A DNA stretch of 64,000 nt from an uncultured Candidatus Saccharibacteria bacterium (GTDB lineage Bacteria; Patescibacteriota; Minisyncoccia; Phycocordibacterales; JACOZG01). The position numbers and the translations under genes are program-made. The DNA lies in assembly GCA_964591715.1 (NCBI GenBank), contig CAZQDR010000004.1, positions 375 through 64,374 of the forward strand. The letters run 5' to 3'. The notes under the pieces were generated by a model. It had not been told where the DNA came from. It searched no databases and saw only the letters and a list, made by a program, of their open reading frames with translations. Positions 1,592 through 42,252 of this stretch are shown in pieces; position 1 is the stretch's first letter, and each line of letters begins with the position of its first letter.

Positions 1592-2098
1592 ATGTTTGCT
1601 GATCCGGAAAAAATAGTTCCGTACCTAGGTTTAGTTGATGGCACATGCGTGGCGGACTTTGGTGCCGGCAGCGGTCATTACTCGTTAGCGATGGCCAAGC
1701 AGGTTGGTGATCGCGGCAAAATTTACGCGATTGATGTGCAGAAGGAACTTTTGGATCGTTTGGCTACGGAGGCGCGTCGAGAGCGACTGCGTAATATTCA
1801 TATCGTCTGGGGCAATATCGAGAAGACGGGTGGCTCCAAGTTGGCTGACGCGGTGGTTGACTGTGTGCTGATTGCCAATGTCTTGCTTTTGACGAACGCT
1901 AAGTACTCAGTGGCACTTGAGGCCAAGCGCTTGCTCCGCCCTGGCGGCAAGGTGGCGGTGATTGATTGGGTTAACGCCCCGGCCGGCGGGTTGACCCCCG
2001 ACGAGGCCAAGCAAATTTTCGCGCAAGCCGGTTTTACCTTTTTAAACGACTTTCCGGCCGGGGCGCAACATTTCGGTCTTTTGTTTCAAAAAAGCTAA
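1592..2098 (+). CDS. Class I SAM-dependent methyltransferase
   Basis: Glycine-rich SAM-binding motif 'VADFGAGSGHYSL', an acidic residue at the end of beta2 ('AIDVQ') and 'LRPGGKVAVIDW', typical of the Rossmann-fold MTase core. Confidence 0.6.
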   Translation: MFADPEKIVPYLGLVDGTCVADFGAGSGHYSLAMAKQVGDRGKIYAIDVQKELLDRLATEARRERLRNIHIVWGNIEKTGGSKLADAVVDCVLIANVLLLTNAKYSVALEAKRLLRPGGKVAVIDWVNAPAGGLTPDEAKQIFAQAGFTFLNDFPAGAQHFGLLFQKS

Positions 2099-2120: not shown

Positions 2121-3413
2121 ATGAGCACGTTCCAACTTACTCTCATTGGCGTTTTTATTTTTGCGCTAATCGTCGGAGTCTTGGTTTTTGCGGGCATCTT
2201 ACCTGGCTTCCGCGCGCCCGCTGGCGGTACGGGTGGATTAGTCACCTTGTGGGGGACGCTTCCCCAGAACGCGGCCGACTTGGCCCTTAGTCAATTTAAA
2301 AAGGATCATGAGGGGGAGTTTACACTTAACTACGTGGCCAAGGATGCCCGTTCGTTTGAGAGTGAGTTTGTAGAGGCTCTCGCTTCAGGCAATGGACCAG
2401 ATTTGGTGCTGATGCCAAACGAATTAGTAAACAAGCACACTAACAAGCTACGCCTTATTCCGTTTAGCTCCTACAGCGCCACCGACTTCCAGAATAATTT
2501 TATTGACCAAGGACGGTTGTACCTTACGAGTGAGGGCGCTTGGGCCTTGCCGGCGTTGGTTGACCCGCTGGTGATGTATGTTAACCGCGATTTGTTGATT
2601 AGCGCCCGCATTCCTCAGGTGCCTAAGACTTGGACGGAACTCCAGACAGCGGTTAAGAGTTTGTCGGTAGCCGATAATCAAAGCACGCTCAGTCAGTCGG
2701 CGATTGCTCTGGGAACTTTCAAAAATATTACTCACGCTAAAGATATTTTAAGTTTATTAATAATGCAGGCCGGTAACCCAATTGTGACCACCGGTAATAA
2801 TGGTTACGAATCAACCCTTAAAGACTCCTTGGGAAATGTTAAATCACCAGCCGAGGAAGCGCTCGACTTTTTTGGTCGCTTTGTTGATCCAACTAGCGCT
2901 GTCTACTCCTGGAACAGTGCTCAGCCCGAGGCACGGAGCGCCTTCACTCGCGGCACACTGGCCTTTTATCTCGGCTATGCCAGCGAGTTGTCCCGCTTAA
3001 AGCAGCAAAACCCGCAGTTAAATATTGATGTTGCCTTAGTGCCCCAACTGCCGGGTCGCCGCCAACTAACAATGGGTCAGCTCTCGGGTATCTCGTTGGT
3101 TAAAACTTCGCGTAATAGCGCCACCGCCTTCCAAGTGATGGCGCTCCTGACTAGTCGGAGCGCGGCCGAGGCTTTGGCTACCGTGGCCGAGTTGCCCCCC
3201 GCCCGCCGCGATCTCTTGAGACCGGTCGCCAGCGATGCCGTTAAAACCGTCTTTAACGAAGCGGCCATTCTTGCGGCGGGCTGGCCCGATCCCGACCCAC
3301 TGGCGACCGAGGCCATCTTTCGTACCATGGTTGAGGCAATCCAGGTGCGGGGAGTGATCCCAAGCGTGGCGATAATCGAGGCTGATATCCAATTAGATTT
3401 ATTGTTTAGATGA
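2121..3413 (+). CDS. Secreted/membrane-anchored solute-binding-protein-like protein (SBP family 1-like)
   Basis: N-terminal TM/signal helix and a ~400 aa soluble domain whose length and composition fit extracellular solute-binding proteins. The assignment is tentative. Confidence 0.4.
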   Translation: MSTFQLTLIGVFIFALIVGVLVFAGILPGFRAPAGGTGGLVTLWGTLPQNAADLALSQFKKDHEGEFTLNYVAKDARSFESEFVEALASGNGPDLVLMPNELVNKHTNKLRLIPFSSYSATDFQNNFIDQGRLYLTSEGAWALPALVDPLVMYVNRDLLISARIPQVPKTWTELQTAVKSLSVADNQSTLSQSAIALGTFKNITHAKDILSLLIMQAGNPIVTTGNNGYESTLKDSLGNVKSPAEEALDFFGRFVDPTSAVYSWNSAQPEARSAFTRGTLAFYLGYASELSRLKQQNPQLNIDVALVPQLPGRRQLTMGQLSGISLVKTSRNSATAFQVMALLTSRSAAEALATVAELPPARRDLLRPVASDAVKTVFNEAAILAAGWPDPDPLATEAIFRTMVEAIQVRGVIPSVAIIEADIQLDLLFR

Positions 3414-3784
3414 AAAAACTTCGCTTCATTTTGATATTTGTGGTCATGTTTGGTGTTAGCTTGGCACCAGCCTCGGCTGCCGGCCTGGTGCCCGATTGCG
3501 ACTTCTTTGGCTGTGATTTGAGTTACGTGCTGGGTCCAGGTGGATTGGTTGATCGCTTGTTGCAGTGGATGGTTCTCATCTCGGTTCCCTTAACCTCACT
3601 GGTTATCGCTTATTCAGGTATTGAGATGGTGCTATCAGCCGATAATCCAGGCAAGCGGGAGAGTGCCAAGAAAATGCTCAAGACGGCGGCTTGGGGTTTA
3701 GTGCTGGTGTTGGCGTCTTATGTTATCGTTAAGACGATTCTCGACTTCTTCGTTGTATCTCCTTATAATCCTGGGTTAAAATAA
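3410..3784 (+). CDS. Small secreted two-TM protein, VirB2/TrbC-like (T4SS-pilin-like) paralog 1
   Basis: Signal peptide (MKKLRFILIFVVMFGVSLAPASA) followed by two hydrophobic helices separated by the charged loop 'SADNPGKRESAKK'. First of five tandem paralogs. Confidence 0.5.
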   Translation: MKKLRFILIFVVMFGVSLAPASAAGLVPDCDFFGCDLSYVLGPGGLVDRLLQWMVLISVPLTSLVIAYSGIEMVLSADNPGKRESAKKMLKTAAWGLVLVLASYVIVKTILDFFVVSPYNPGLK

Positions 3785-3788
3785 ATAT

Positions 3789-4142
3789 ATGAATTTTATT
3801 AACACTGTTCTTGCGCAACAATCAGGATCAAATCCTCCCGGCGGCGGTCAGGGAGGTTCTAACCCACCAGCTGGATCCGGCATTGGCAATCCGCTTGGCT
3901 CGATTGATACAATCCAAAAGTTAATTATCAAAATTTTAGATCTGGTAGTACAGATTGGCTTACCCGTTATCGTGCTCATGATCATGTATGCCGGTTTTAA
4001 ATACGTCATTGCTCGGGGCGACCCGGGTAAAATCAAAGAGGCCCATCAGGCTTTGCTTTGGACCGTCATCGGTGCCGCAGTTGTTTTGGGTGCCAGTGTC
4101 ATCTCTTACGCCATCCAAAGTACCGTCACCAGCTTAAAATAA
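3789..4142 (+). CDS. VirB2/TrbC-like small membrane protein paralog 2
   Basis: Gly/Pro-rich N-terminal region followed by a two-helix C-terminal module, with a 'RGDPGKIKEAHQALLWTVIGAAVVLGA' loop homologous to paralog 1. Confidence 0.5.
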   Translation: MNFINTVLAQQSGSNPPGGGQGGSNPPAGSGIGNPLGSIDTIQKLIIKILDLVVQIGLPVIVLMIMYAGFKYVIARGDPGKIKEAHQALLWTVIGAAVVLGASVISYAIQSTVTSLK

Positions 4143-4145
4143 AAT

Positions 4146-4595
4146 ATGAATAAATACATTATTATTGCAGTCTTGTTGGTAAACTTCTTTCTCTTACCGC
4201 TAACTTATGCCGCTGGTCCTACTGGTGGACCAGAGGCTCCGGCCGGCACCCCCGCGGCCACTAATTACGGTCAGGTGACCACTAGTTCGGCGGGCAGTTG
4301 CGGCAATATTAAAGATTTTGCCAGTTTTGTTAACTGTATCCGCGACGGAATTATTCAGCCACTTATCTACTTATTGTTCGCCCTGGCTATTGTCTACTTT
4401 TTGTATGGGGTGTTACAATATATCAGGAAAGGTGGTGACGAGGATAGTCAACGCGAGGCTCGCAGTATGATGATCTTCGGCATTATTGCCATTGCAGTAA
4501 TGGTGTCGGTGTGGGGCTTGGTTAACTTTTTAACCAACAGTTTTAAGTTAGACAATGCGTCGCCCATTGTTCCCAAAATTAGTTTATTAAAATAA
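4146..4595 (+). CDS. VirB2/TrbC-like small membrane protein paralog 3
   Basis: Signal peptide, variable region, then the conserved C-terminal module 'LYGVLQYIRKGGDEDSQREARSMMIFGIIAIAVMVSVWGLVNFL'. Confidence 0.5.
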   Translation: MNKYIIIAVLLVNFFLLPLTYAAGPTGGPEAPAGTPAATNYGQVTTSSAGSCGNIKDFASFVNCIRDGIIQPLIYLLFALAIVYFLYGVLQYIRKGGDEDSQREARSMMIFGIIAIAVMVSVWGLVNFLTNSFKLDNASPIVPKISLLK

Positions 4596-4604
4596 GTAGT
4601 TTAT

Positions 4605-4979
4605 ATGATTAAAACAATTAAAAGAGTTGTGCCAGTTACGCTAAGTTTTTTACCTCTCTTGGCTGCCGCTCAGCAGGTGACCAATTTTAGTGATGTTGAT
4701 AGTTCCTTCCAGTCCATAATTGATATTATTAACGTTTACATTATCCCGATTTTGGTTGGTATTGCGGTAGTTTACTTTATGTTGGGAGTGTTGAAGTATG
4801 TTCGAGCCGGGGGTGATGAGACTGCTCGAACGGAAGGACGACACATGATGATCTTCGGCATTATTGCCATTGCGGTTATGGTCTCAATCTGGGGCTTAGT
4901 TAACTTCTTGCGAAATTCCTTTGGTTTGTCTGGGGACCAGACATTACAGGGCGGATTGCCTCAAGTGCCAAGACAATAA
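4605..4979 (+). CDS. VirB2/TrbC-like small membrane protein paralog 4
   Basis: Signal peptide plus the C-terminal module 'MLGVLKYVRAGGDETARTEGRHMMIFGIIAIAVMVSIWGLVNFL', near-identical to paralog 3 at the nucleotide level. Confidence 0.5.
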   Translation: MIKTIKRVVPVTLSFLPLLAAAQQVTNFSDVDSSFQSIIDIINVYIIPILVGIAVVYFMLGVLKYVRAGGDETARTEGRHMMIFGIIAIAVMVSIWGLVNFLRNSFGLSGDQTLQGGLPQVPRQ

Positions 4980-4989
4980 ACTTACCTCT

Positions 4990-5268
4990 GTGTTTAAGTT
5001 TTTTACTGTTGCTGAAGCCGCAACCTCGATTCCACTGCTCGACAAGATTAAAACGAACATTCTTGATCCGTTGGTGTTGTTGATGTTTGCGGTGGCGCTA
5101 CTCGTCTTTCTCTTCGGTGTCTTCCAGATGGTGAGAGGTCAGGGGAGTGGTGAGGCCCGCGAAACGGGTGGACGGCACATTTTGTGGGGAACAGTCGGCA
5201 TGGCGATTATGGTCTCGGTCTACGGCATTCTCCATGTAGTCTGTAACACCTTCAATATCTGCAGCTAG
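4990..5268 (+). CDS. Truncated paralog 5 of the same family (no signal peptide; start uncertain, GTG at 4990 or ATG at 5083)
   Basis: Carries only the conserved C-terminal two-helix module 'LFGVFQMVRGQGSGEARETGGRHILWGTVGMAIMVSVYGIL'. The track ORF at 4921 overlaps the end of paralog 4. Confidence 0.3.
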   Translation: MFKFFTVAEAATSIPLLDKIKTNILDPLVLLMFAVALLVFLFGVFQMVRGQGSGEARETGGRHILWGTVGMAIMVSVYGILHVVCNTFNICS

Positions 5269-5333
5269 AGTAAAAATTGAGCAAAAAAAAGAGGCGAGTA
5301 CCGATTGGTACGCGCCTTTTGGGTTGGGGGCGA

Positions 5334-6050
5334 CTAGCGATGGTCTCGCCAGTACGCCGCTATTCGTTCCTGACTCCAGGGAGTCCAGGTAACAGTTACT
5401 GTCGCCGGTTTCGTTTCAATTTCGTTAGTCCGAAACCGGCAGGGCCCGACGTCCGCGACTGGCGCTACGCCAATGTTGGAACGGTTCTTCGGCCAGATCG
5501 TGTACATCTGACCGCTGGGCGTGATCTTGTCGACCGCGCCCGTGACCTGAATGTCCCAGTCACAGGCTGGTGGGATCTCGATCGCTTCGGTCGAGAATTC
5601 TCCCAGCGGCGCCACCAAGGTTCGCTTTTGCTCGGCGCTACCACTAGTGGTTACTGTCGCTCGGGCAATCGTCGGCGCCGTCAGCCAATCCCGCAGTGTG
5701 GGATAGCTGAACAAGAATAGACCGACAATGACCAGGCCCCAAATGTTCCGTTGAATGGTGGCTGAGCCATACTTGGCAACAACCAAGATGATTATGGCTA
5801 CGGCCAGAAACATCAGGACGGTTGTGCTGGGGAGCCACGAGTGATAGGTCGTCCAGCCACCCAGACTTAGACTGGGTTTGCCAAACGGCCAGAGCCAAAT
5901 TGCCAGCGCAATCACCACCACCGAGGCCGCGATTCCGCCACCCCACTTCATTGCCCGACGATTGACTCCCGCCTTCGACAGGATGCCTAGGAAAACGACT
6001 AGCCCTAAGACTCCCAACAAAGCCGCAATTACCTGAAGTAGCTCACTCAT
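5334..6050 (-). CDS. Hypothetical polytopic membrane protein
   Basis: 238 aa with several N-terminal TM helices and a C-terminal soluble domain. No recognisable family. Confidence 0.45.
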   Translation of the reverse strand: MSELLQVIAALLGVLGLVVFLGILSKAGVNRRAMKWGGGIAASVVVIALAIWLWPFGKPSLSLGGWTTYHSWLPSTTVLMFLAVAIIILVVAKYGSATIQRNIWGLVIVGLFLFSYPTLRDWLTAPTIARATVTTSGSAEQKRTLVAPLGEFSTEAIEIPPACDWDIQVTGAVDKITPSGQMYTIWPKNRSNIGVAPVADVGPCRFRTNEIETKPATVTVTWTPWSQERIAAYWRDHR

Positions 6051-6100
6051 TAATATCCCCTTATTCTTGAACGTGATTTAAAGTCCAGGTTAACGCTACT

Positions 6101-6135
6101 TGACAGTATAGCATATAATATGCTATTGTCAATAC
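6101..6135. promoter_or_regulatory. 35-bp imperfect palindrome (TTGACAGTATAGCATAT/ATATGCTATTGTCAA) overlapping -35/-10-like hexamers in the divergent intergenic region. A third half-site TTGACAGCATA lies at 6165-6175.
   Basis: Read directly from the sequence. Inverted repeat with a TTGACAGyATA half-site present three times between the divergently oriented genes 5334-6050 (-) and 6183-7373 (+). Confidence 0.4.
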
Positions 6136-6182
6136 CAGCAACGTTAACTGTGTCTATTGGCCTTTGACAGCATACAAGGAGC

Positions 6183-7373
6183 ATGAAAATGCTAAGCGGA
6201 ATCGCGTTGATCGTTCTGGCCTTTGGTTTGTTGGTGGTTGGTCTGTATTACGCGGCCAAACTTAAGACCCACGTCACGAATGTGCGGACGGGGAGAATGG
6301 AGCTAGTGGTTGCAGGAGAAACGCTCGTAAAAGTGCTGAGCAATCTGCCAGGGCACCACGCCAAAAGACAGACCGATGGTACCTGGAAGATCGTCCCCAA
6401 TATTGTAGATGGGGAAGGGAATGTGATTGAGGATGGTCATAGAGCCGGACCCTTAGGTTATCTGGAGCGAAAGTGGGGTATTTACTGGGTTAGCTTGTGG
6501 TACCCCTTGCGTCAGGTTCTGAAGTTCAATCTTCCCTTTGCCGACCGCTTGGTCAGCGAATCGAAGTTGAATGCAGACTACAAAGTCAAAGATCGGATTG
6601 AGCACGTAGTTTCAAAACCAGTTGAAGACTTGCTGTGGCAATTTCCTCACCCGGTGTTTGTGCCAGAAGTAGAGTTGGGGGAGGACGGAGCCAAGGCTGA
6701 TTTTGTGGTCAATGCAATCTTGCAGATTGAGGATCCGGGACAAGCGGTGCTTGTCCATGACGCAAAGTTCTTCCTGACCATTAACCAGGTTATCCAGGGG
6801 GTGGTGGGAGACTTTGGCACCAAGCTCACTTACCAGAAGTTGCGTGCGACCCGCAAAGGGTTGGGTAAAAACAACCAACCGTCGACGGATCCCACTCTCG
6901 CCAGTATTGCTCAGCTAGCGATCGAAGCAAACGATCAGCCATCACCTGACGATGAATCACGGAGCGTACGCGAAGTAACTGGCGTTAAGATCATTAACGC
7001 TTGGGTGGTTGACTTCAATCTGACGGGCGCTAGTCTGGAACTCCAAAATGCCGCACAGCAAATGGAGATCCAGAAAAATCTGGCAGCGGCGGCGAAAGAG
7101 CGCGGCAAAGGTGCGGCGGATGAAATTAATGCCAAGGCAAAAGCCGAAGCAGATCGAATCGATATCATTGCCGAAGCCATGAGAAAAAATGGCGCCAGCG
7201 GTGATGCTATCGCAGCGGTGATTGGGACCATTCTTCGCACTGAAAACATCGGTAAGATGACTGGTCTCAGTACCTACATGGAAGGTGGAGGAACGGGGAT
7301 GGTGGCGGTTACGTCAACACCTCGGACGACTCCGCCTCCGGTCGTACCTCCGGCCCCGCCCAGCAATCCTTGA
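6183..7373 (+). CDS. SPFH/band-7-like (flotillin/HflK-like) membrane protein
   Basis: N-terminal TM helix and a C-terminal Ala/Glu/Lys-rich coiled coil 'AAAAKERGKGAADEINAKAKAEADRIDIIAEA', typical of SPFH C-termini. The family call is moderate. Confidence 0.45.
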   Translation: MKMLSGIALIVLAFGLLVVGLYYAAKLKTHVTNVRTGRMELVVAGETLVKVLSNLPGHHAKRQTDGTWKIVPNIVDGEGNVIEDGHRAGPLGYLERKWGIYWVSLWYPLRQVLKFNLPFADRLVSESKLNADYKVKDRIEHVVSKPVEDLLWQFPHPVFVPEVELGEDGAKADFVVNAILQIEDPGQAVLVHDAKFFLTINQVIQGVVGDFGTKLTYQKLRATRKGLGKNNQPSTDPTLASIAQLAIEANDQPSPDDESRSVREVTGVKIINAWVVDFNLTGASLELQNAAQQMEIQKNLAAAAKERGKGAADEINAKAKAEADRIDIIAEAMRKNGASGDAIAAVIGTILRTENIGKMTGLSTYMEGGGTGMVAVTSTPRTTPPPVVPPAPPSNP

Positions 7374-18586: not shown

Positions 18587-19375
18587 ATGTCTCAAGAACA
18601 ACCAGCTTCCAACGAAGCCGAATTATCGGGTCGTGAACGTCGTCGTTTGCGCCGTGAGGCCATGCGTAGTGGCGAGAGTGTACCTGGCAGCTCAACTGGA
18701 TTTAAAACGGCCGGCATCTGGATTGCGGTTGTCGTTGTTCTTTTACTTATTGTTGGTGGGATCGTAGCGCTCGTAGCCGGCGGCAGTAAGCCGCCGGTGG
18801 ATATTGGGCTTGCGGTACCAGTGCATGCGGGCGATTGGACCACTGGCGCTTCGTTGGCTACGACAACGGCCACCACCACAACTATCTCGCTGGTGGAGTA
18901 TAGCGACTACCAGTGCCCTGCTTGTGCCTATTATCACCCGTGGGTAAAGCAGCTGCTCACTGATGTTCCTGAACTGGCTTTTACTTATCGACATTTCCCA
19001 CTCTCGCAGATCCACAAAAATGCTGAACCGGCCGCCCGCGCGGCCGAGGCAGCTGGCCGTCAGGGTCGTTATTGGGAGATGCATGATTTGCTTTTTGAAC
19101 ATCAGGCTGAATGGTCGGAGGAGACAGCGCCCAAGGCCGAGGCTATGTTTACGCAGTACGCTGAATCAGTTGGGGTTAATCTAATGGAATTTAAGAAGGA
19201 TATGTCTAGTGATTTTGTGAAGAACAAAGTCTCGAGCGACTTTCAGACCGGTGTTCAGTCGGCAGTCAATGCGACCCCCACCTTCTTCTTGAACGGAAAA
19301 TTTATCAATAATCCTCGCAGCTATAATGAATTTCTCGAGCTTGTTAAAGGCACCAGTACTGCTCCTCGGATTTAG
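18587..19375 (+). CDS. Membrane-anchored DsbA-family thiol:disulfide oxidoreductase
   Basis: N-terminal TM helix and a thioredoxin fold with the CxxC motif 'YQCPACAYYHPW'. 262 aa. Confidence 0.7.
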   Translation: MSQEQPASNEAELSGRERRRLRREAMRSGESVPGSSTGFKTAGIWIAVVVVLLLIVGGIVALVAGGSKPPVDIGLAVPVHAGDWTTGASLATTTATTTTISLVEYSDYQCPACAYYHPWVKQLLTDVPELAFTYRHFPLSQIHKNAEPAARAAEAAGRQGRYWEMHDLLFEHQAEWSEETAPKAEAMFTQYAESVGVNLMEFKKDMSSDFVKNKVSSDFQTGVQSAVNATPTFFLNGKFINNPRSYNEFLELVKGTSTAPRI

Positions 19376-19760
19376 TCTCATTGGTTTTGTTGACGCAACT
19401 TATCTAACGGTTAGCCATTTTACTGGTGCAAATTTGCCTTGCCGACTCTTTGATGGTTGTGACTTGGTAACGACTAGCACTTACTCTACAATTGGTCCGA
19501 TCCCGGTGGCCGTGCTCGGTGTCCTCTTTTACCTGAGTGTTTTTGTTTTGGCACTCGCTTATCTTTTGTATCAAAATCCCAGAATTCCCCAGCTGTTGCT
19601 AGTGATAGGCTCGCTGGGATTTTTGGCTACGCTTTACTTTGTGTCCTTACAGCTGTGGGTGATTAAGGCCATTTGCTTGTATTGCATGATCTCTGCGGTG
19701 CTATCCACTGCCATCTTTCTCACGACCCTGTATAATAAACGCAAAGCCCAAGCGGTATGA
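19326..19760 (+). CDS. Vitamin K epoxide reductase (VKOR) family protein (start uncertain, overlaps upstream gene)
   Basis: Four-TM protein with loop cysteines 'PCRLFDGCD' and the intramembrane CxxC motif 'CLYC', the VKOR signature. Confidence 0.65.
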   Translation: MNFSSLLKAPVLLLGFSLIGFVDATYLTVSHFTGANLPCRLFDGCDLVTTSTYSTIGPIPVAVLGVLFYLSVFVLALAYLLYQNPRIPQLLLVIGSLGFLATLYFVSLQLWVIKAICLYCMISAVLSTAIFLTTLYNKRKAQAV

Positions 19761-28760: not shown

Positions 28761-30029
28761 ATGTTAGACATCAAATTTATCCGGGAGAATCCGGATTTGA
28801 TTACGGAGGCCGCTCGCAAAAAGCACCTCACTTTCTCGGTGCAGGATTTGCTAATTTTAGATGAGAAGCGCCTCAAACTCTTAAACGAAGTGGAGCGAAT
28901 GCGCGCCGAGCAAAATACGGTGAGTGAGGAAATGCCCGCCGCCGATAATCATCGTCGCGGCATTTTAATTGAGAGTATGCGCACACTCAAAGCCGCGCTC
29001 CAGGATCGCGAGGCGGAATTAAACGGCGTGCTTAAAGATTGGCAAAAGTTAATGGTTCAGGTGCCAAACGTGCCGGATGTTTCTGTGCCGGAGGGAGCCA
29101 GTGATGCCGAGAATTTAGAAGTGCGCACTTGGGGCGAACCCACCCTGTTCGATTTTACCCCCAAAAACCATGTGGAATTAATGCAGGCGCTCGACCTAGC
29201 GGACTTTGAGCGGGGTACCAAGGTCGCTGGCTTTCGCGGTTATATATTAAAGAATGACGGCGCGGCACTACAGTTTGCTTTGTGGCAATTTACGATCCAG
29301 CATTTCTTGAAGCAGGGTTATCAACTGCTCTCGGTGCCGTCGCTCGTTAAGCGTGAAGCTTTTTTGGGTACTGGTTATTTGCCGCAAGGTGAGGAGGATT
29401 TGTATAAAACCCAGGATGGTGATTATTTGGCCGGCACTGCTGAAGTGGCCACCATGGCCTATCACATGGGTGAGACTTTTGCCGAAGCTGATCTACCAAA
29501 AAAATATTTGGCTTTCTCCCCCTGCTTCCGTCGCGAGGCGGGCAGTCACGGCAAGGATACTAAGGGCTTAATCCGCGTCCACGAGTTTTTCAAATTAGAG
29601 CAGGTCGTTTTGTGCCCAGCCGATCACGAACTGTCGGTTAAATATCACGAGGAGATGACGCGCTTGTCGGAGGAATTATTACAAGCACTTAAATTGCCCT
29701 ATCACGTCGTGGCCAATTGCGGCGGCGATCTGGGTTTGGGTCAGGTTAAAAAGTATGATCTCGAGGCCTGGGTACCATCCGAGAATGCTTATCGCGAGAC
29801 TCACTCGGCTTCCTACTTCCACGACTTCCAGACTCGCCGTTTAAATATTCGTTACAAAGATAGCGAAGGCAAATTGCGCTTTGCGCACTCGCTTAACAAC
29901 ACCGCGCTGGCTACCCCGCGCGTCATTGTTCCCCTAATTGAGAATTATCAACAGGCCGATGGCAGCATTCTTGTTCCGGAAGTCCTCCAACCATATCTGG
30001 GAAAAGAAAAAATTACCCATGCGGCATGA
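28761..30029 (+). CDS. serS: Seryl-tRNA synthetase
   Basis: N-terminal coiled-coil arm and class II motifs 'FRREAGS' and 'GLIRVHEF'. 422 aa, ending with TGA. Confidence 0.95.
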   Translation: MLDIKFIRENPDLITEAARKKHLTFSVQDLLILDEKRLKLLNEVERMRAEQNTVSEEMPAADNHRRGILIESMRTLKAALQDREAELNGVLKDWQKLMVQVPNVPDVSVPEGASDAENLEVRTWGEPTLFDFTPKNHVELMQALDLADFERGTKVAGFRGYILKNDGAALQFALWQFTIQHFLKQGYQLLSVPSLVKREAFLGTGYLPQGEEDLYKTQDGDYLAGTAEVATMAYHMGETFAEADLPKKYLAFSPCFRREAGSHGKDTKGLIRVHEFFKLEQVVLCPADHELSVKYHEEMTRLSEELLQALKLPYHVVANCGGDLGLGQVKKYDLEAWVPSENAYRETHSASYFHDFQTRRLNIRYKDSEGKLRFAHSLNNTALATPRVIVPLIENYQQADGSILVPEVLQPYLGKEKITHAA

Positions 30030-30876
30030 TGATCTGCTCCGCAACTCTCGTCAGCTAAAACAGCGTCGGATCTTCCGGCAATGGCTCTGGTTTGCTAGTA
30101 GTCTCACGGCCTTTTTGGTCATTGTTATCATTATGGCCAACACTAGCCGCTTCGCGATAGGTGAGATCAAGATTAGTGGTGCGCAAACAATTAGAGAGCA
30201 AGATATTGAGACGACGATTAACAGCGTGCTGGATGGACGTTACGGCGGGATATTTCCTCGACGCAATGTTTGGCTCTTCCCGAAGGCGGATGTAGTGGCG
30301 GCGCTAAGAGCCCAGTATCCTAATCTAGCGGCGGTGTCAGTAGCACTGTCAGATAAAACGACGTTAGTGGCCAAGGTGGCCGAGCGAGCTGGCACTGTCC
30401 GCTGGTGTCGCGATGAGACCGAAGTGACCTGCTATTTTGCTGACCAAAATGGATACATCTTTTCCGAATCACCAGAGTTTAGCCGGGGAATATTTTTAAG
30501 TATTGTAAGTGATTTACCAACTGACCCCATTGATCTGGCGCCACTTGAGACCGCCGACTTTAAAATACTGGTCTCATTGCGAGAGGCGATGGCTCGGGCT
30601 TTGTCGTCGAGTAGTCAGTCGCCGGTAAACATCTTTCAAATTCAGCATGAGGAGGGGCGAGACTACGCGCTCATTGCCGAGAGTTCTTCGCCCGAGCGGC
30701 GTTATCGTGTGCGCATTTCGCTTGATCAAGACCTTGATCAAGCAGCCAATAATGCCGCCGCGGCTTTGGCGGCTCCGGCGCTTCAGTCAGAACTAGCAAA
30801 AAAGGAGACCAAGCTCGATTATCTGGATCTTCGATTTGCGCCAAAGATTTTCTATAAATTCCAGCCCGGTATATAA
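30019..30876 (+). CDS. FtsQ/DivIB-like cell-division protein (POTRA domain); start taken at the Met overlapping the serS stop
   Basis: Basic cytoplasmic tail, TM helix 'LTAFLVIVIIMA', then POTRA-like 'IGEIKISGAQTIREQDIETTIN...RNVWLFPKADVVAALRAQYPNLAAVSV'. Confidence 0.55.
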   Translation: MRHDDLLRNSRQLKQRRIFRQWLWFASSLTAFLVIVIIMANTSRFAIGEIKISGAQTIREQDIETTINSVLDGRYGGIFPRRNVWLFPKADVVAALRAQYPNLAAVSVALSDKTTLVAKVAERAGTVRWCRDETEVTCYFADQNGYIFSESPEFSRGIFLSIVSDLPTDPIDLAPLETADFKILVSLREAMARALSSSSQSPVNIFQIQHEEGRDYALIAESSSPERRYRVRISLDQDLDQAANNAAAALAAPALQSELAKKETKLDYLDLRFAPKIFYKFQPGI

Positions 30877-30883
30877 TAAATGA

Positions 30884-31273
30884 ATGCAGTTTGGAACTTT
30901 GCCGTTTCAATATCTCGGTTGGCACTATACGCTCGCCCTTAAAGATTATGCCGTTAATGCCGGCAATATTCTCCGCTTTATTTATCACTTCTTTTCTCTG
31001 CCGACATTAATCAAGACGTTTTTTGCGCCGTGGCGTCGACTGGGCGAGCAGTATCGCAAGGTCTTTGATCCCGGTGCCTGGTTTGAGACCTTTATTTTAA
31101 ACGCGCTGATGCGGTTGCTCGGAATGTTTTTTCGTCTCTGGTTAATTTTAACCGGTCTGGCGGTACTGGCGGTGGCTAGCGTCGCCGCAGTTGTTATCTT
31201 TATATTTTGGTTGATCTTGCCGCTGGCGGTCGCGATCATCTTTCTCGGCGGACTTAACTTGCTCTGGTCATGA
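30884..31273 (+). CDS. Hypothetical membrane protein (129 aa)
   Basis: Two or three hydrophobic helices. No recognisable family. Confidence 0.4.
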   Translation: MQFGTLPFQYLGWHYTLALKDYAVNAGNILRFIYHFFSLPTLIKTFFAPWRRLGEQYRKVFDPGAWFETFILNALMRLLGMFFRLWLILTGLAVLAVASVAAVVIFIFWLILPLAVAIIFLGGLNLLWS

Positions 31274-33675
31274 ACGCCTATGCTAAAATTATTCGCTCCA
31301 GTCGACTCTACCCGGTATTAATTTTGGAGGAGTTAATCTCCAGCGCTGCCCGAAACATCTTGTTGAAAGTAGGCACGCTCGCCATTTTGTTGGTCCTCGG
31401 TGTCTCGTTGCCCAACGGGATTGCTCCGCAAGTTTCTGGATTGTTGCTAATGTTAATTGCGATTCTTTTGATCTTGGCGGCGATCGAGCTTTTCTTCCGC
31501 TCTTATTATTACGAAAGTATTATTACTAATGAGTACACCGATCAGGATATTTTTACTTTTACGGTGGGCCGGATCCTAAGGAATATTCATCACGACAAAA
31601 TCTTAAAGGCCTATCTATACTCACCAACCGGTCGGCAGGTCACGCGACGTCTGGGTCTAGATCGAAATGCCGTTGACGCTTTTTTGGCCAGTCATGCCGC
31701 CTTACCGACCGAGCCGCTCCACTTTGCGGCGGGAGAGGTTTTGACTCTGCGCCAGCTCACTACCTGGTTACTGACAGCTTACCCGGCGTGGCAAGAGTGG
31801 CTACTCACCTTTGACTTGCAGACCGATGACGTTTTGGCCGTCGTTGATTGGGTGGTCAGGGATATTGAGACGGCGGCGCGACGGCGCCGCTGGTGGTCGG
31901 CCGAGCGCCTAGAGCGCGTAGCGCCGATTGCTCAAGACTGGTCCTACGGTGAGACCTTTGGCCTAATGCGTTACAGTAAGGATTTAACCGCTACCGCTAC
32001 GCCAGAAGCGCCCCAGGCGACCATCAGCCAGGAGGTCCAGGCGCTCGAAACCGTTTTAGCTCGTGTTCATGAGGCCAATGCTCTCTTGGTGGGGGCGACG
32101 GCCGAGAATCTTGATTCGGTCTTATGGCGGTTTGCTCGGACGCTTAAAGCTGGTGCCACTTTACCAGCCTTACAAAACAAGCGCTTAATTGTCTTGCACG
32201 TAGCGGACTTTTTAGCCGCCTCCAGTGACCGACAAAATTTAGAACAAGGTCTCAGTAAGTTGCTGGCCGAAGCCGCCGCCGCTGGTAACGTTATTTTGGC
32301 GATTGATAATTTTCCTAACTTACTCCAGGCGGGAGAGGCACTCCAAGCTGACGTGGTCGCCTTACTCGAACCTTATTTAAATAGCGGGACCTTGCAACTG
32401 GTAGCGCTCTCGGAGACCGAAGTCTTTCATCGCGCGCTTGAACCACGAGCCGGTTTGATGACCCGCTTCGAGAAGATCGACGTTAACGAGGGCAATGATG
32501 AGCGGATTATTACCGAGCTAGAAGACTTGGCCGAAGAATTGGAGCGCACTAATCCGGTTGTCATTACTTATCCCGCCCTCCGGATGATTTACACCAATGC
32601 CGAGCAATACTTTCAAACGGATTCTTTAACTGATAAGGCAACTGACTTGTTGATTGAGGCGGTACCATGGGCGCTCGGTCATGGTAAAAGTGTGATTGAT
32701 CGGTCAGTCGTCGAGGCGCTCACCAAAGACAAGACCAGTATTCCGGTCGGTGCCATTGACGCTGGCGAAAAGCAGAAGTTGCTTGGGTTGGAGGCGGCCC
32801 TGCATGCTCGGGTCATTGGCCAAGCGACAGCACTCAAGGCCGTGGCCAATGCCATGCGTCGTGGTCGTACCGGTATCCGTAATCCAAAGCGACCCATGGG
32901 CTCGTTCCTGTTTTTGGGTCCAACTGGTGTTGGTAAGACTGAAACAGCGAAGGCGCTCGCCGCCGTCTTCTTTGGCCGTGAGGATGCGCTCTTGCGTCTG
33001 GATATGTCAGAGTATCAGTCGAGCGATGCTTTGGCTCGATTAATCGGCTCGTTTGGGAGTGGTCAGCCTGGTGTGTTGGCAAATCTCTTGCGTCAAAATC
33101 CTTACGGGGTGCTGTTGCTGGATGAATTTGAAAAGACCAATCGCGAAGTACTGAATTTGTTTTTGCAGATTTTAGATGAGGGTTTCTTTTCAGATATGAA
33201 TGGTAAGCGGGTTAATGCCCGTAATATTATTTTTATTGCCACCTCCAATGCGGGCGCCGAGCTCCTGTGGCAGATGGTCAAGTCGGGCCGTGACCCCGTC
33301 GCGGCCAAGGATGAATTAGTGAACAATTTGGTCAGCCAAGGGATTTATAAGCCGGAACTTTTGAACCGCTTCGACGATGTGATTATCTTCCACCCCTTGT
33401 CCGAGACGGATTTGCTCCAGGTGGCTCGACTGCAATTGGAACGTCTAGCCACGCGCCTCAAAAAACAAGGTATAATGGTCAGCGTTACCGATGAGCTGGT
33501 GGCGACCGTGGTGGCGCAAGGCAGTAACGCGGTATTTGGGGCTCGGCCGATGCAGCGCTTTATTCAAGACGAAGTCGAACAGCGCCTGGCCGAGGCGATG
33601 ATTAAAGGTGAGGTGGGCAGTGGTAGTTATGTTAGCTTCGACGGCGACCTTACGCTGCACGCCAGCAAAAAATAA
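31270..33675 (+). CDS. Membrane-anchored Hsp100/Clp-family AAA+ protein with degenerate NBD1 and intact NBD2
   Basis: N-terminal TM helices. The NBD1-like region aligns to ClpB but Walker A is replaced by 'LLVGATAENLDS' and Walker B by 'ILAIDNF'. NBD2 is intact: '[19 protein letters not shown]', 'VLLLDEFEKTNREV', 'IFIATSN' and 'GARPMQRFI'. Confidence 0.7.
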   Translation: MNAYAKIIRSSRLYPVLILEELISSAARNILLKVGTLAILLVLGVSLPNGIAPQVSGLLLMLIAILLILAAIELFFRSYYYESIITNEYTDQDIFTFTVGRILRNIHHDKILKAYLYSPTGRQVTRRLGLDRNAVDAFLASHAALPTEPLHFAAGEVLTLRQLTTWLLTAYPAWQEWLLTFDLQTDDVLAVVDWVVRDIETAARRRRWWSAERLERVAPIAQDWSYGETFGLMRYSKDLTATATPEAPQATISQEVQALETVLARVHEANALLVGATAENLDSVLWRFARTLKAGATLPALQNKRLIVLHVADFLAASSDRQNLEQGLSKLLAEAAAAGNVILAIDNFPNLLQAGEALQADVVALLEPYLNSGTLQLVALSETEVFHRALEPRAGLMTRFEKIDVNEGNDERIITELEDLAEELERTNPVVITYPALRMIYTNAEQYFQTDSLTDKATDLLIEAVPWALGHGKSVIDRSVVEALTKDKTSIPVGAIDAGEKQKLLGLEAALHARVIGQATALKAVANAMRRGRTGIRNPKRPMGSFLFLGPTGVGKTETAKALAAVFFGREDALLRLDMSEYQSSDALARLIGSFGSGQPGVLANLLRQNPYGVLLLDEFEKTNREVLNLFLQILDEGFFSDMNGKRVNARNIIFIATSNAGAELLWQMVKSGRDPVAAKDELVNNLVSQGIYKPELLNRFDDVIIFHPLSETDLLQVARLQLERLATRLKKQGIMVSVTDELVATVVAQGSNAVFGARPMQRFIQDEVEQRLAEAMIKGEVGSGSYVSFDGDLTLHASKK

Positions 33676-38636: not shown

Positions 38637-39575
38637 TTATTGACTATAGACGAGCGTGGCGCGGATTTGATCGAACAATTTAAGCAGGGCTGGCTGATCA
38701 AATTTGGTAATCGTCCCAGCAGGGTAGTTCTCAAAGACGCTGTAGTGGACCAAGTAGCGAACGGCTAAGCAGGGATTAGTGTCGGGGAAAGCGTAAACGG
38801 TCTCCTCATAGCGATTACCAGCGCCGGCATTGCTGGAGCTGGCGACCGAATAATTTTGACCGGCTAGGGTTTCGATCACCGTTGGATGATTACCATCTAA
38901 AAATAGACTGGCGGAACAGCTGGCCGAAGCGGGCAGGGACTCAAGACTTAAGTAACTGTCGGCGCTCAAGTTAGTGCCGGTGGCCATGGTCTCGGGAATG
39001 GTGAATTTAACGCCAGCGATTTTGAGCGTGGGTGACGCTTGGTAGATATAGGACTCATCCACTTTAAAACTGTCGGGGTAACCCGCCGAACTTGAGGCGA
39101 CTAAGCTTGGGAAGCGAAGAGTGACACCGAGCGAACTGTTAGCGTAAATTTGAGAGAGATTGTCACTGGCGGCATTAGGTGAGACGGCGACGCAGCCAAT
39201 GTAACTCTTCTCGGTATTATTCTCCAGGACCAAGGCGCCATTACCCTTGCTCCAAAAGACGAAGGCCTCATCGGTAGTGGCGTAACGGGCGCCATCGGCG
39301 GAAATGGTTTGGGCCAGGGTGAGATTACGGCCGTCACTTAGGTTAAGCTCAACGTGACCACCGGAAACTGGGGGTTGGTCGCCAACGGCCAGAGTTGAGG
39401 ATCCCGCAAAATAGCTGGCGGTTAAAGTTTTACCAGCGTCACAAGCGTATTGGACGGTGATTAGGGGTTTGTCATTGGTTGCTACTGGTTCTGTAAAAAG
39501 GGGACGATAAGGACTAAACCAACCAATTAGCAGCACGACGACCACCAGCCCTAAAAGCAAGATAAATTTTTTCAT
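38637..39575 (-). CDS. Hypothetical secreted/membrane-anchored Ser/Thr/Asn-rich protein (312 aa)
   Basis: N-terminal hydrophobic helix 'MKKFILLLGLVVVVLLIGW', a low-complexity extracytoplasmic domain and many N-x-S/T sites. A hairpin follows the stop. Confidence 0.5.
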   Translation of the reverse strand: MKKFILLLGLVVVVLLIGWFSPYRPLFTEPVATNDKPLITVQYACDAGKTLTASYFAGSSTLAVGDQPPVSGGHVELNLSDGRNLTLAQTISADGARYATTDEAFVFWSKGNGALVLENNTEKSYIGCVAVSPNAASDNLSQIYANSSLGVTLRFPSLVASSSAGYPDSFKVDESYIYQASPTLKIAGVKFTIPETMATGTNLSADSYLSLESLPASASCSASLFLDGNHPTVIETLAGQNYSVASSSNAGAGNRYEETVYAFPDTNPCLAVRYLVHYSVFENYPAGTITKFDQPALLKLFDQIRATLVYSQ

Positions 39576-41415: not shown

Positions 41416-41604
41416 ACTGGAGTAAACCTATCGATAATTTGTTTGGCTTGTGACGTTGTCACGGGCTTTTTTCTTGTCCAAAATTCCCCTGAGCAGCCTA
41501 TAGAAGTTTAAATAAGTCAGTCTTGACGAACTGATTCATAAGTACTAGTTTTTGAGTAGTACTTAGTGTCAATGTTTAGTCCTTTAACTGTTAAGGGGGC
41601 CAAA

Positions 41605-42252
41605 ATGCTAGTAATTTCCCGATGCTTGAACGCGGGCATCAGAATCGGGGAAGACACCGAAGTTAAGGTGCTGCGACTGGGAACTCGCCGGGTGACGCTT
41701 GGGGTGGAGTGTCCCCCTGGGATACCAGTTTTCCGCAGCGAAGTAGCGCCGGAAATGTCGTCACCAGAGTCGCAAGCCCCGCCGCTAGACATCCGGGTTT
41801 TGATTGTTGAGGACATCCCCGTGCACGGACTTTTGATCGAGCGAAGCTTGTGCAAAAAGGGAGTCAGCCAGATTGAGAAGGTGACAAGCGCTGAAGATGC
41901 GATCAGGCTTCTGGAATCAATTCAGCAGAAGGAGCTGACACGGCCCGATTTGGTTTTGCTTGACCTTGGTTTACCGGGCGTGTCCGGCCTTGAGGTGCTC
42001 AAGAAGATCAGATCAGCGTTCGGTTGGGAAATCGCGGTGGTGGTTCTGACCTGCAGTAACCTCGCCGAGGATTACCGCCAGGCTATGGCGGCGGGTGCCA
42101 ACGCTTTCGTCTCCAAGGGCGAGAGTTACGAAGCTTTTAGACAGCAGCTTTTGTCGATCATCAACTTTTGGGGTAAGGTGGCCTATCGCTTTCGGTATGG
42201 CTTGGGCTCGGCGCGCGCCGAGCCTTTTTTGATCAGTGCGGAGCGCTGGTAA
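41605..42252 (+). CDS. CsrA-like RNA-binding domain fused to a response-regulator receiver (REC) domain
   Basis: RBS AAGGGGG before ATG 41605. The N-terminus 'MLVISRCLNAGIRIGEDTEVKVLRLGTRRVTLGVECPPGIPVFRSEV' aligns with CsrA 'MLILTRRVGE..IGDD..V.VL...G.QVRIGI.APK.V.V.REEI'. The C-terminus is a REC domain with the phospho-acceptor region 'LVLLDLGLPGVSG', T/S 'VVVLTCS' and K 'AFVSKG'. Confidence 0.6.
   Translation: MLVISRCLNAGIRIGEDTEVKVLRLGTRRVTLGVECPPGIPVFRSEVAPEMSSPESQAPPLDIRVLIVEDIPVHGLLIERSLCKKGVSQIEKVTSAEDAIRLLESIQQKELTRPDLVLLDLGLPGVSGLEVLKKIRSAFGWEIAVVVLTCSNLAEDYRQAMAAGANAFVSKGESYEAFRQQLLSIINFWGKVAYRFRYGLGSARAEPFLISAERW

Follow-up and report, generated by a model that had tools for sequence, protein, structure and literature searches.

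A conserved operon of five T4SS_pilin-family membrane proteins and a solute-binding-protein-fold gene in Patescibacteria

Introduction

Tandem arrays of VirB2-like pilin genes have been described in the genomes of many Patescibacteria. Quinonero-Coronel et al. reported 441 such arrays, each with 2-11 genes, across 383 assemblies, in which genes of the Pfam families PF18895 and PF04956 occur in tandem or one gene apart and share a mean identity of 25%, with a maximum of 54% (Quinonero-Coronel et al. 2025, PMC12102498). Pilin genes were found near virB4 in only 1,135 of 1,948 assemblies (PMC12102498). The array analyzed here lies on contig CAZQDR010000004.1, within a stretch of 64,000 nucleotides that is referred to as the window. 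At positions 3410-5268 of the plus strand, the window encodes five paralogous small membrane-hairpin proteins in tandem, p1 to p5, directly behind a gene for a protein with the solute-binding-protein (SBP) fold.

VirB2-like arrays belong to the small number of envelope systems with demonstrated essentiality for epibiotic life in a cultivated Patescibacterium. In Southlakia epibionticum ML1, six PF18895 genes (SEML1_0014-0019) are located inside a type IV secretion system (T4SS) cluster and are essential by transposon sequencing (Tn-seq) (Wang et al. 2023, PMC10633639; review PMC12857230). VirB2 paralogues are also found in the host-dependent bacteria Bartonella and Anaplasma, where tandem duplication and divergence have been placed in a model of antigenic variation (summarized in PMC12102498).

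Five small genes and an SBP gene form one operon

The array is composed of p1 (3410-3784, 124 aa), p2 (3789-4142, 117 aa), p3 (4146-4595, 149 aa), p4 (4605-4979, 124 aa) and p5 (4990-5268, 92 aa). All are on the plus strand and are separated by gaps of 3-10 nt. The original prediction, made from the DNA alone, had described five consecutive genes on one strand, and all five open reading frames (ORFs) are present. The lengths it gave, 93-149 aa, hold for p1-p4 (117-149 aa), while p5 most likely has 92 residues. The longest ORF for p5 begins at TTG 4921 and overlaps p4. The start at GTG 4990 is preferred because a close relative, L078, has a called 92-aa gene at the equivalent place. L078 is a 68-kb JGI contig whose gene order matches that of the window.

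Upstream of the array is the SBP gene (2121-3413, plus strand), whose product matches SBP_bac_8 (E 4.6e-20) and SBP_bac_1 (E 1e-17) in Pfam. The protein has the family-1 fold and an N-terminal transmembrane (TM) anchor. The stop codon of the SBP gene overlaps the start codon of p1 by 4 nt (ATGA), and the SBP gene and p1-p5 form one operon. A gene with matches to S-adenosylmethionine-dependent methyltransferase families (1592-2098, plus strand) is a conserved neighbor upstream of the SBP gene.

Behind the array, a GC-rich hairpin of 32 nt (5289-5320, not assigned to either strand) lies between p5 and a convergent gene (5334-6050, minus strand), preceded by an A-run and followed by a U-run. The RNA fold has a free energy of -23.1 kcal/mol (z -4.2), and 0 of 200 shuffled sequences were equally stable. 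The hairpin is probably a bidirectional intrinsic terminator that closes the operon. A scan for consensus promoters and terminators gave nothing convincing; it overlooked this hairpin, which was later shown by folding.

The array proteins share a C-terminal hairpin

Each of the five proteins has two C-terminal TM segments in a hydropathy scan, and the five charged loop strings quoted in the original prediction are all found verbatim between them. AlphaFold2 models were obtained for p2 and p3, and both are helical hairpins, with helices at residues 42-74 and 79-116 in p2 (pLDDT 78-91) and at 58-94 and 99-132 in p3 (pLDDT 83-89). The stretches that precede helix 1 are disordered in both models. 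The mutual identity of p1-p5 is 14-55%, and p3 and p4 are the closest pair (55% over 89 aa, BLASTP). The position of a gene in the array is called its slot below. Family profiles for slot 2 and slot 4 are clearly homologous (hhalign probability 98.5%, E 4e-15). A custom hidden Markov model (HMM) built from ten pilin-like sequences recovers exactly p1-p5, and nothing else, among the window ORFs of at least 45 aa, which indicates that the shared module is not due to chance.

The five proteins differ in what surrounds this module. In p1, a signal peptide (…APASA/AG) is followed by the Cys pair LVPDC…C and then the hairpin with loop SADNPGKRE. p2 begins with a leader of only 10 residues, followed by a Gly/Pro/Asn-rich stretch that ends in a conserved NPL motif and by a hairpin with loop RGDPGKIKE. 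p3 has a signal peptide, a disordered Pro/Thr/Gly-rich stretch, the Cys pair SCGN…NC, a hairpin with loop RKGGDEDSQRE and a C-terminal tail. In p4, the signal peptide (…LLAAAQ) leads directly to the hairpin, whose loop is RAGGDETARTE. p5 has no signal peptide and consists of the hairpin (loop RGQGSGEARE) with a C-terminal Cys pair, CNTFNIC.

Cleavable signal peptides had been described for four of the five proteins. By inspection, only three of them, p1, p3 and p4, start with a canonical Sec signal peptide, and p2 and p5 do not. The leader of p2, MNFINTVLAQ, is kept in its short form in L078 and in L074, a more distant relative. Most slot-2 orthologues have a full signal peptide, and the p2 leader (window 3789-3820) resembles the tail of it. 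Among slot-5 orthologues, 33 of 34 are without a signal peptide and 33 of 34 have only two TM segments. Slot-5 proteins have a short …A-x-A leader akin to that of p2.

A gene for a DsbA-like thioredoxin (Thioredoxin_4/DSBA; 18587-19375, plus strand), overlapped by a 144-aa ORF at 19326-19760 (plus strand), is also found in the window. It belongs to the extracytoplasmic disulfide machinery, which would suit the Cys pairs of p1, p3 and p5.

Family assignment

The Pfam HMM search proposed earlier places the array in PF18895 (T4SS_pilin). The gathering score of this family is 26.6 bits, and it is exceeded by p1 (40 bits), p2 (51.2), p3 (30.2) and p4 (33.0); p5 scores 21.7-22.5 bits and is under it. 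The alignments extend from profile positions 3-12 to 70-71 of 71. At E<=0.01, PF18895 is matched by 29 of 29 slot-5 orthologues (best E 2.2e-11) and by 27 of 27 slot-1 orthologues. Judged from these profile matches, the membership of the array in PF18895 is solid.

Membership in the strict VirB2/TrbC family appears borderline. Against the PF04956 (TrbC/VirB2) gathering score of 27.9 bits, p2 is just above (28.1 bits), and p1, p3, p4 and p5 have no match. Orthologues match PF04956 at E<=0.01 in 17 of 27 cases for slot 1 and 6 of 29 for slot 5. The original prediction had named both the VirB2/TrbC fold and the 'T4SS pilin' family of the candidate phyla radiation (CPR); the second assignment stands, and homology to classical VirB2/TrbC proteins is borderline only. 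The NCBIfam profile NF045849 aligns end-to-end with the C-terminal module of p1-p4 at 21-29 bits, which is below its cutoff of 40. Phage holins and other phage families were also considered. There were no PHROG matches, which makes holin-type phage proteins unlikely.

The operon is conserved across distant genomes

A scan with the SBP alignment, with one genome per species, gave 68 Patescibacteria loci, and protein look-ups added 10 related metagenome loci. The 68 loci are labeled Vogel-, Nomura-, Zambryskii-, Campbell- and Adlerbacteria, Paceibacterota and others. Their SBPs are merely 30-43% identical to that of the window. The arrangement seen at ~65 Paceibacteria loci is gyrA, the methyltransferase and the SBP gene as a block, with an array behind it that usually has five pilin genes. 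Pilin-like ORFs are found on the same strand downstream of the SBP gene at 66 of 72 loci. Where both flanks are available, a pilin-like gene immediately follows the SBP gene at 62 of 63 Patescibacteria loci, with giant slot-1 fusions counted. The sole exception is a Campbellbacteria locus (L050:5152-7669), which has kept gyrA, the methyltransferase and the SBP and has a convergent multi-TM gene instead of the array.

The methyltransferase is directly upstream of the SBP gene at 66 of 72 loci, and gyrA is conserved upstream at 61 of 72. Conservation is weaker downstream, with RbfA at 22 and IF-2 at 24 of the 72 loci. Adjacency of the SBP gene and the array persists in 4 loci that are without the upstream methyltransferase. 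Because gyrA and the methyltransferase are conserved nearly as well, synteny alone is no proof of a functional link between the SBP and the array. Family-1 SBPs normally partner ABC permeases, not hairpin proteins, and Pfam scans, which covered 44 large ORFs across the window, found no ABC permease partner for the SBP.

Complete arrays were found at 51 loci and have five genes in 34 cases, six in 8 and four in 6; array size ranges from 2 to 7 genes. When the genes of five-gene arrays were matched between genomes, best matches mostly fell on the diagonal (counts of 705-989, versus 0-356 off it), and partial interchange is seen only between slots 3 and 4 and between slots 1 and 2. On this best-match criterion, each of the five positions is a slot with one-to-one orthologues in distant genomes. 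The slots also have signatures of their own. Slot 1 has the Cys pair LVP(D)C…C with an insert of 4 to ~60 residues, slot 2 has the NPL motif ahead of helix 1, and slots 3 and 4 have a GDEE…G(R/K) loop.

At 13 loci (L027:4808-7708, L022:11314-13614, L017, L021, L023, L025, L033, L036, L043, L055, L058, L061 and L069), the first gene of the array encodes a protein of 350-966 aa with an N-terminal extension in place of the slot-1 Cys loop. Two of these proteins, of 966 and 766 aa, were scanned, and in both, repeats of the FN3 / purple-acid-phosphatase-N type were confirmed and the C-terminus is the PF18895 hairpin. The long slot-1 proteins resemble adhesins to which a pilin module has been joined, and the fusions are consistent with an outward-facing, adhesin-like N-terminus. 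At L058, L061 and L069 (~11.2-16.5 kb each), the array is split 3+3 by two opposite-strand genes without an assigned function.

Constraint and variability

Comparison with L078 shows purifying selection on all five genes. Over the alignable parts, the ratio of nonsynonymous to synonymous substitution rates (dN/dS) is 0.03-0.20 across the array genes (p1 0.04, with dS ~2.2; p2 0.03; p4 0.12; p5 0.03), and such low values argue for expressed genes under constraint. Identity to L078 is 86% for p1, 95.7% for p2, 88% for p3 (alignable C-terminal 103 residues only), 90% for p4 and 95.7% for p5. The corresponding values are 98.8% for GyrA, 99.0% for IF-2 and 85% for the SBP. In L074 (GyrA 87.5%), p1-p5 have one-to-one orthologues with 48-67% identity, close to the values for the SBP (50.5%) and for the methyltransferase (61.5%).

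Two parts of the operon stand out in the comparison with L078. The SBP gene and p1 (window 2200-3700) have a dS of ~2, versus 0.3-0.6 for most neighbors, with low dN/dS. The N-terminal ~45 residues of p3 (within window 4100-4300) are unalignable, and nucleotide identity falls to 26% at 4201-4300. The divergence of the SBP-p1 segment and the exchange of the p3 N-terminus suggest allelic replacement by recombination in parts that are predicted to be surface-exposed.

Orthologues share 12-17% identity in the ectodomain stretch and 42-48% in the hairpin, and in these alignments variability is restricted to the ectodomain stretches ahead of helix 1. The N-terminal regions had been described as hypervariable, which is correct only in part. 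Relatives retain the Cys pairs of p1 and p3, L078 has a Gly/Pro-rich stretch identical to that of p2, and a true replacement between close relatives is seen only for the p3 N-terminus. Variable surfaces are nevertheless what the p3 N-terminus, the loop of slot 1 and the SBP-p1 segment behave as. A check for recombination-based switching turned up neither direct nor inverted DNA repeats of any note at the array, and likewise no invertible segments or silent cassettes.

Immediately behind the array, the two contigs have different genes (window 5334-7373, L078:11225-12871). L078 encodes a membrane protein of 216 aa there, together with a minus-strand Band_7/SPFH gene. In the window, a 238-aa protein is 63% identical over 164 aa to the 216-aa protein of L078, and a 396-aa protein (plus strand) has no Pfam match and does not truly resemble the Band_7 gene.

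Discussion

The operon is probably, with considerable room for doubt, a set of five non-redundant VirB2-like subunits with an SBP-fold partner or neighbor, from which a T4SS encoded elsewhere builds a host-contact surface structure. Each product would be an alpha-helical hairpin in the cytoplasmic membrane, with the N-terminal ectodomain and the C-terminal tail outside and the short charged loop in the cytoplasm. The five would be subunits in fixed positions: slot 1 bears the Cys loop or an adhesin and slot 2 the NPL motif, slots 3 and 4 are near-twins, and slot 5 is short and leaderless. By analogy with the essential array of S. epibionticum, the subunits may be extracted from the membrane and then built into a polymer, a channel or a stalk by a T4SS of the kind of mating-pair formation (MPF) class FATA that is encoded elsewhere in the genome. 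The outcome would be a surface structure that touches the host cell and displays the variable ectodomains outside. A role in host attachment, as originally proposed, is plausible.

Several results weigh against this explanation. Similarity to experimentally characterized pilins is weak. The slot-2 and slot-4 profiles reach hhalign probabilities of just 1.5% and 12% against eight genuine MPF-T VirB2/TrbC proteins; this is weak negative evidence because the reference alignment is narrow, being made up of alphaproteobacterial sequences from Ti-type and other MPF-T plasmids. When the same profiles were compared with PDB sequences, matches were compositional or borderline, and pKM101 TraM (8cw4) was found at an E of no better than 0.003, level with designed TM proteins. 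A Foldseek search of PDB gave no match with E<1, a result that is uninformative because the helical hairpin fold is too generic. p2 and p5 depart from the canonical signal peptide of pilins. The hosts of classical pilins (MPF-T, MPF-F) are diderm, and the host of the window is monoderm. No VirB2-type pilus has been visualized in any Patescibacteria, and the studies consulted report polymerization into a pilus for none of their pilin-like proteins (PMC12102498, PMC10633639, PMC12857230).

The genomic surroundings point the same way. The earlier remark that no VirB4, VirB6 or other T4SS core gene is nearby is borne out: VirB4, VirB6, VirD4 and type IV pilus ATPases are absent from the 44 large ORFs of the window in the Pfam scans, and no T4SS gene is among the recurrent neighbor clusters within 10 kb at ~70 related loci. 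With no core gene in the window or in the 10-kb flanks, dependence on a T4SS is unproven in this lineage. For the Vogelbacteria genome with locus L008, VirB4 is recorded as present (PMC12102498 Table S1), which means that at least one genome with an equivalent operon encodes the T4SS ATPase elsewhere.

These same observations feed the main rival explanation, which is unlikely: the SBP and the five hairpins may be a membrane or surface apparatus of their own that is independent of any T4SS, such as an uptake or sensing channel that the SBP supplies, or a stalk that assembles by itself, with no more than a distant resemblance to pilins. The distance from T4SS genes, the insignificant hhalign and Foldseek similarity to classical pilins and the missing permease partner of the SBP would all fit. 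So would the adjacency of the SBP gene and the array (62 of 63 loci, and also the 4 without the methyltransferase), the stop-start overlap with p1, the fixed number of orthologous slots and the dS of ~2 shared by the SBP and p1, by which the two may be exchanged as a unit. What speaks against it is that gyrA (61 of 72) and the methyltransferase (66 of 72) adjoin the SBP almost as often, that the Campbellbacteria locus has the SBP without the array, that family-1 SBPs normally pair with ABC permeases, and that the same Pfam family is found inside the essential and SBP-free T4SS cluster of S. epibionticum. A stronger form of the idea is more doubtful still. It holds that the SBP and the five slots are a single T4SS-free envelope apparatus widespread in the sampled Paceibacteria lineages, for instance a heteromeric stalk, pilus or channel with a solute-binding receptor for host-derived metabolites, in which slot 1 is the exchangeable adhesin position. 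If true, genome-reduced episymbionts would have a novel kind of surface or uptake machine that depends on an SBP.

Two further explanations fare worse. The original prediction had also raised antigenic variation, and this part does not hold up well. A locus for antigenic or host-range variation, with interchangeable, fast-evolving paralogues that are swapped or alternately expressed as proposed for VirB2 of Bartonella and Anaplasma, has been raised for Patescibacteria arrays (PMC12102498). It could explain the contrast between ectodomain and hairpin identity, the slot-1 loop of 4 to ~60 residues, the range in array size from 2 to 7, and a p3 N-terminus replaced between genomes whose GyrA and IF-2 are 99% identical. 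It is nevertheless improbable here. The slots are one-to-one orthologous even though the SBPs are only 30-43% identical, dN/dS is 0.03-0.20 in every gene, and p2 and p5 (95.7% identical to L078) are comparable to the housekeeping neighbors. There are no long repeats, invertible segments or silent copies at the array and no further copies in the window, and the location of the five genes in one tight operon implies co-expression rather than alternation. Slot orthology, low dN/dS and the lack of switching repeats together point to fixed, non-redundant subunits rather than an antigenic-variation cassette. Least likely of all, by a wide distance, is that the ORFs encode nothing more than generic, small, hydrophobic proteins, or are no genes at all, and draw Pfam matches by TM composition alone. 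Hydrophobic hairpins do attract compositional matches: the slot-4 profile scores de novo designed channels above real pilins, p5 is under the Pfam threshold, and homologues carry spurious names, e.g., hemolysin III and cytochrome subunits. Conservation and dN/dS effectively refute this explanation, since all five genes are under purifying selection, four of five exceed a curated gathering score, and orthologues in ~65 genomes keep the slot motifs (NPL, the LVPDC Cys pair and the GDEE…G(R/K) loop); the lack of PHROG matches also counts against it.

The Paceibacteria array is an old operon with five fixed positions, linked to an SBP gene and unlinked from T4SS core genes, and is not a loose, fast-turning family of paralogues. 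An operon of fixed slots narrows the hypotheses towards a heteromeric structure with specialized subunits. The slot-1 Cys loop and the FN3 fusions are nominated as the likely contact surface, and the SBP as a possible partner.

Other genes in the window

The identified genes of the window include GyrA, IF-2, two ClpB-like proteins, TopA, SerRS, DprA, ParB, Dus, DnaX, SOD and MacAB-like ABC components. The second ClpB-like protein (31270-33675, plus strand, 801 aa) matches only the second AAA module and the D2-small domain in Pfam, and it is preceded by two ORFs with no Pfam match (29938-30876 and 30884-31273). An ORF at 41566-42252 (plus strand) joins a CsrA domain (PF02599, residues 14-63) to a response-regulator receiver domain (residues 78-193), an unusual pairing of an RNA-binding regulator and a phospho-receiver. 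A 311-aa protein at 38637-39575 (minus strand) has an MliC domain (membrane-bound inhibitor of C-type lysozyme).

Comparison with known systems

The array proteins resemble classical VirB2, TrbC and TraA pilins in their two hydrophobic helices, short charged loop and A-x-A/Q type cleavage site and, for p1, p3 and p4 as judged by inspection, in their signal peptide. Classical systems have a single major pilin, whereas the window has five co-encoded paralogues with longer ectodomains that carry Cys pairs. Every plasmid example that was fetched has virB1, virB3 or virB4 adjoining the pilin gene, unlike the window array. The Mbov_0395 family (NF045849) comes from an integrative and conjugative element (ICE) of Mycoplasma, a wall-less monoderm with an MPF-FATA-type system. 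Its 80-residue hairpin profile aligns with the C-terminal module of p1-p4. Mbov_0395 is a single gene inside the ICE, however, and the window proteins are under the NF045849 cutoff and so are not members. In contrast to the model for Bartonella and Anaplasma, the copies in the window are ancient, positionally orthologous, under purifying selection and without recombination substrates.

The S. epibionticum array is the only one with functional data. Like the window array, it encodes PF18895 proteins (~120-140 aa in S. epibionticum) that are divergent in sequence and similar in structure. It has six genes, adjoins VirB6-, PrgI- and VirB4-like genes and has no SBP. The window array has five genes, no T4SS gene within 64 kb and an SBP gene translationally coupled upstream.

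With its five contiguous genes of 14-55% mutual identity, the window array falls under the definition of Quinonero-Coronel et al. (PMC12102498). It is like the arrays described there in its Pfam families, same-strand tandem order, chromosomal location and low paralogue identity. Those arrays are most abundant in Microgenomatia and Saccharimonadia, whereas the window array is placed in a Paceibacteria lineage through its relatives. The main text of that study has 0 mentions of solute, substrate-binding or gyrA, and neither the gyrA-methyltransferase-SBP context nor the five-slot orthology of the window array is part of it. Tandem pilin arrays in Patescibacteria were already published, and the fixed five-slot organization, the coupling to an SBP gene and the FN3-fused slot-1 variants are added here.

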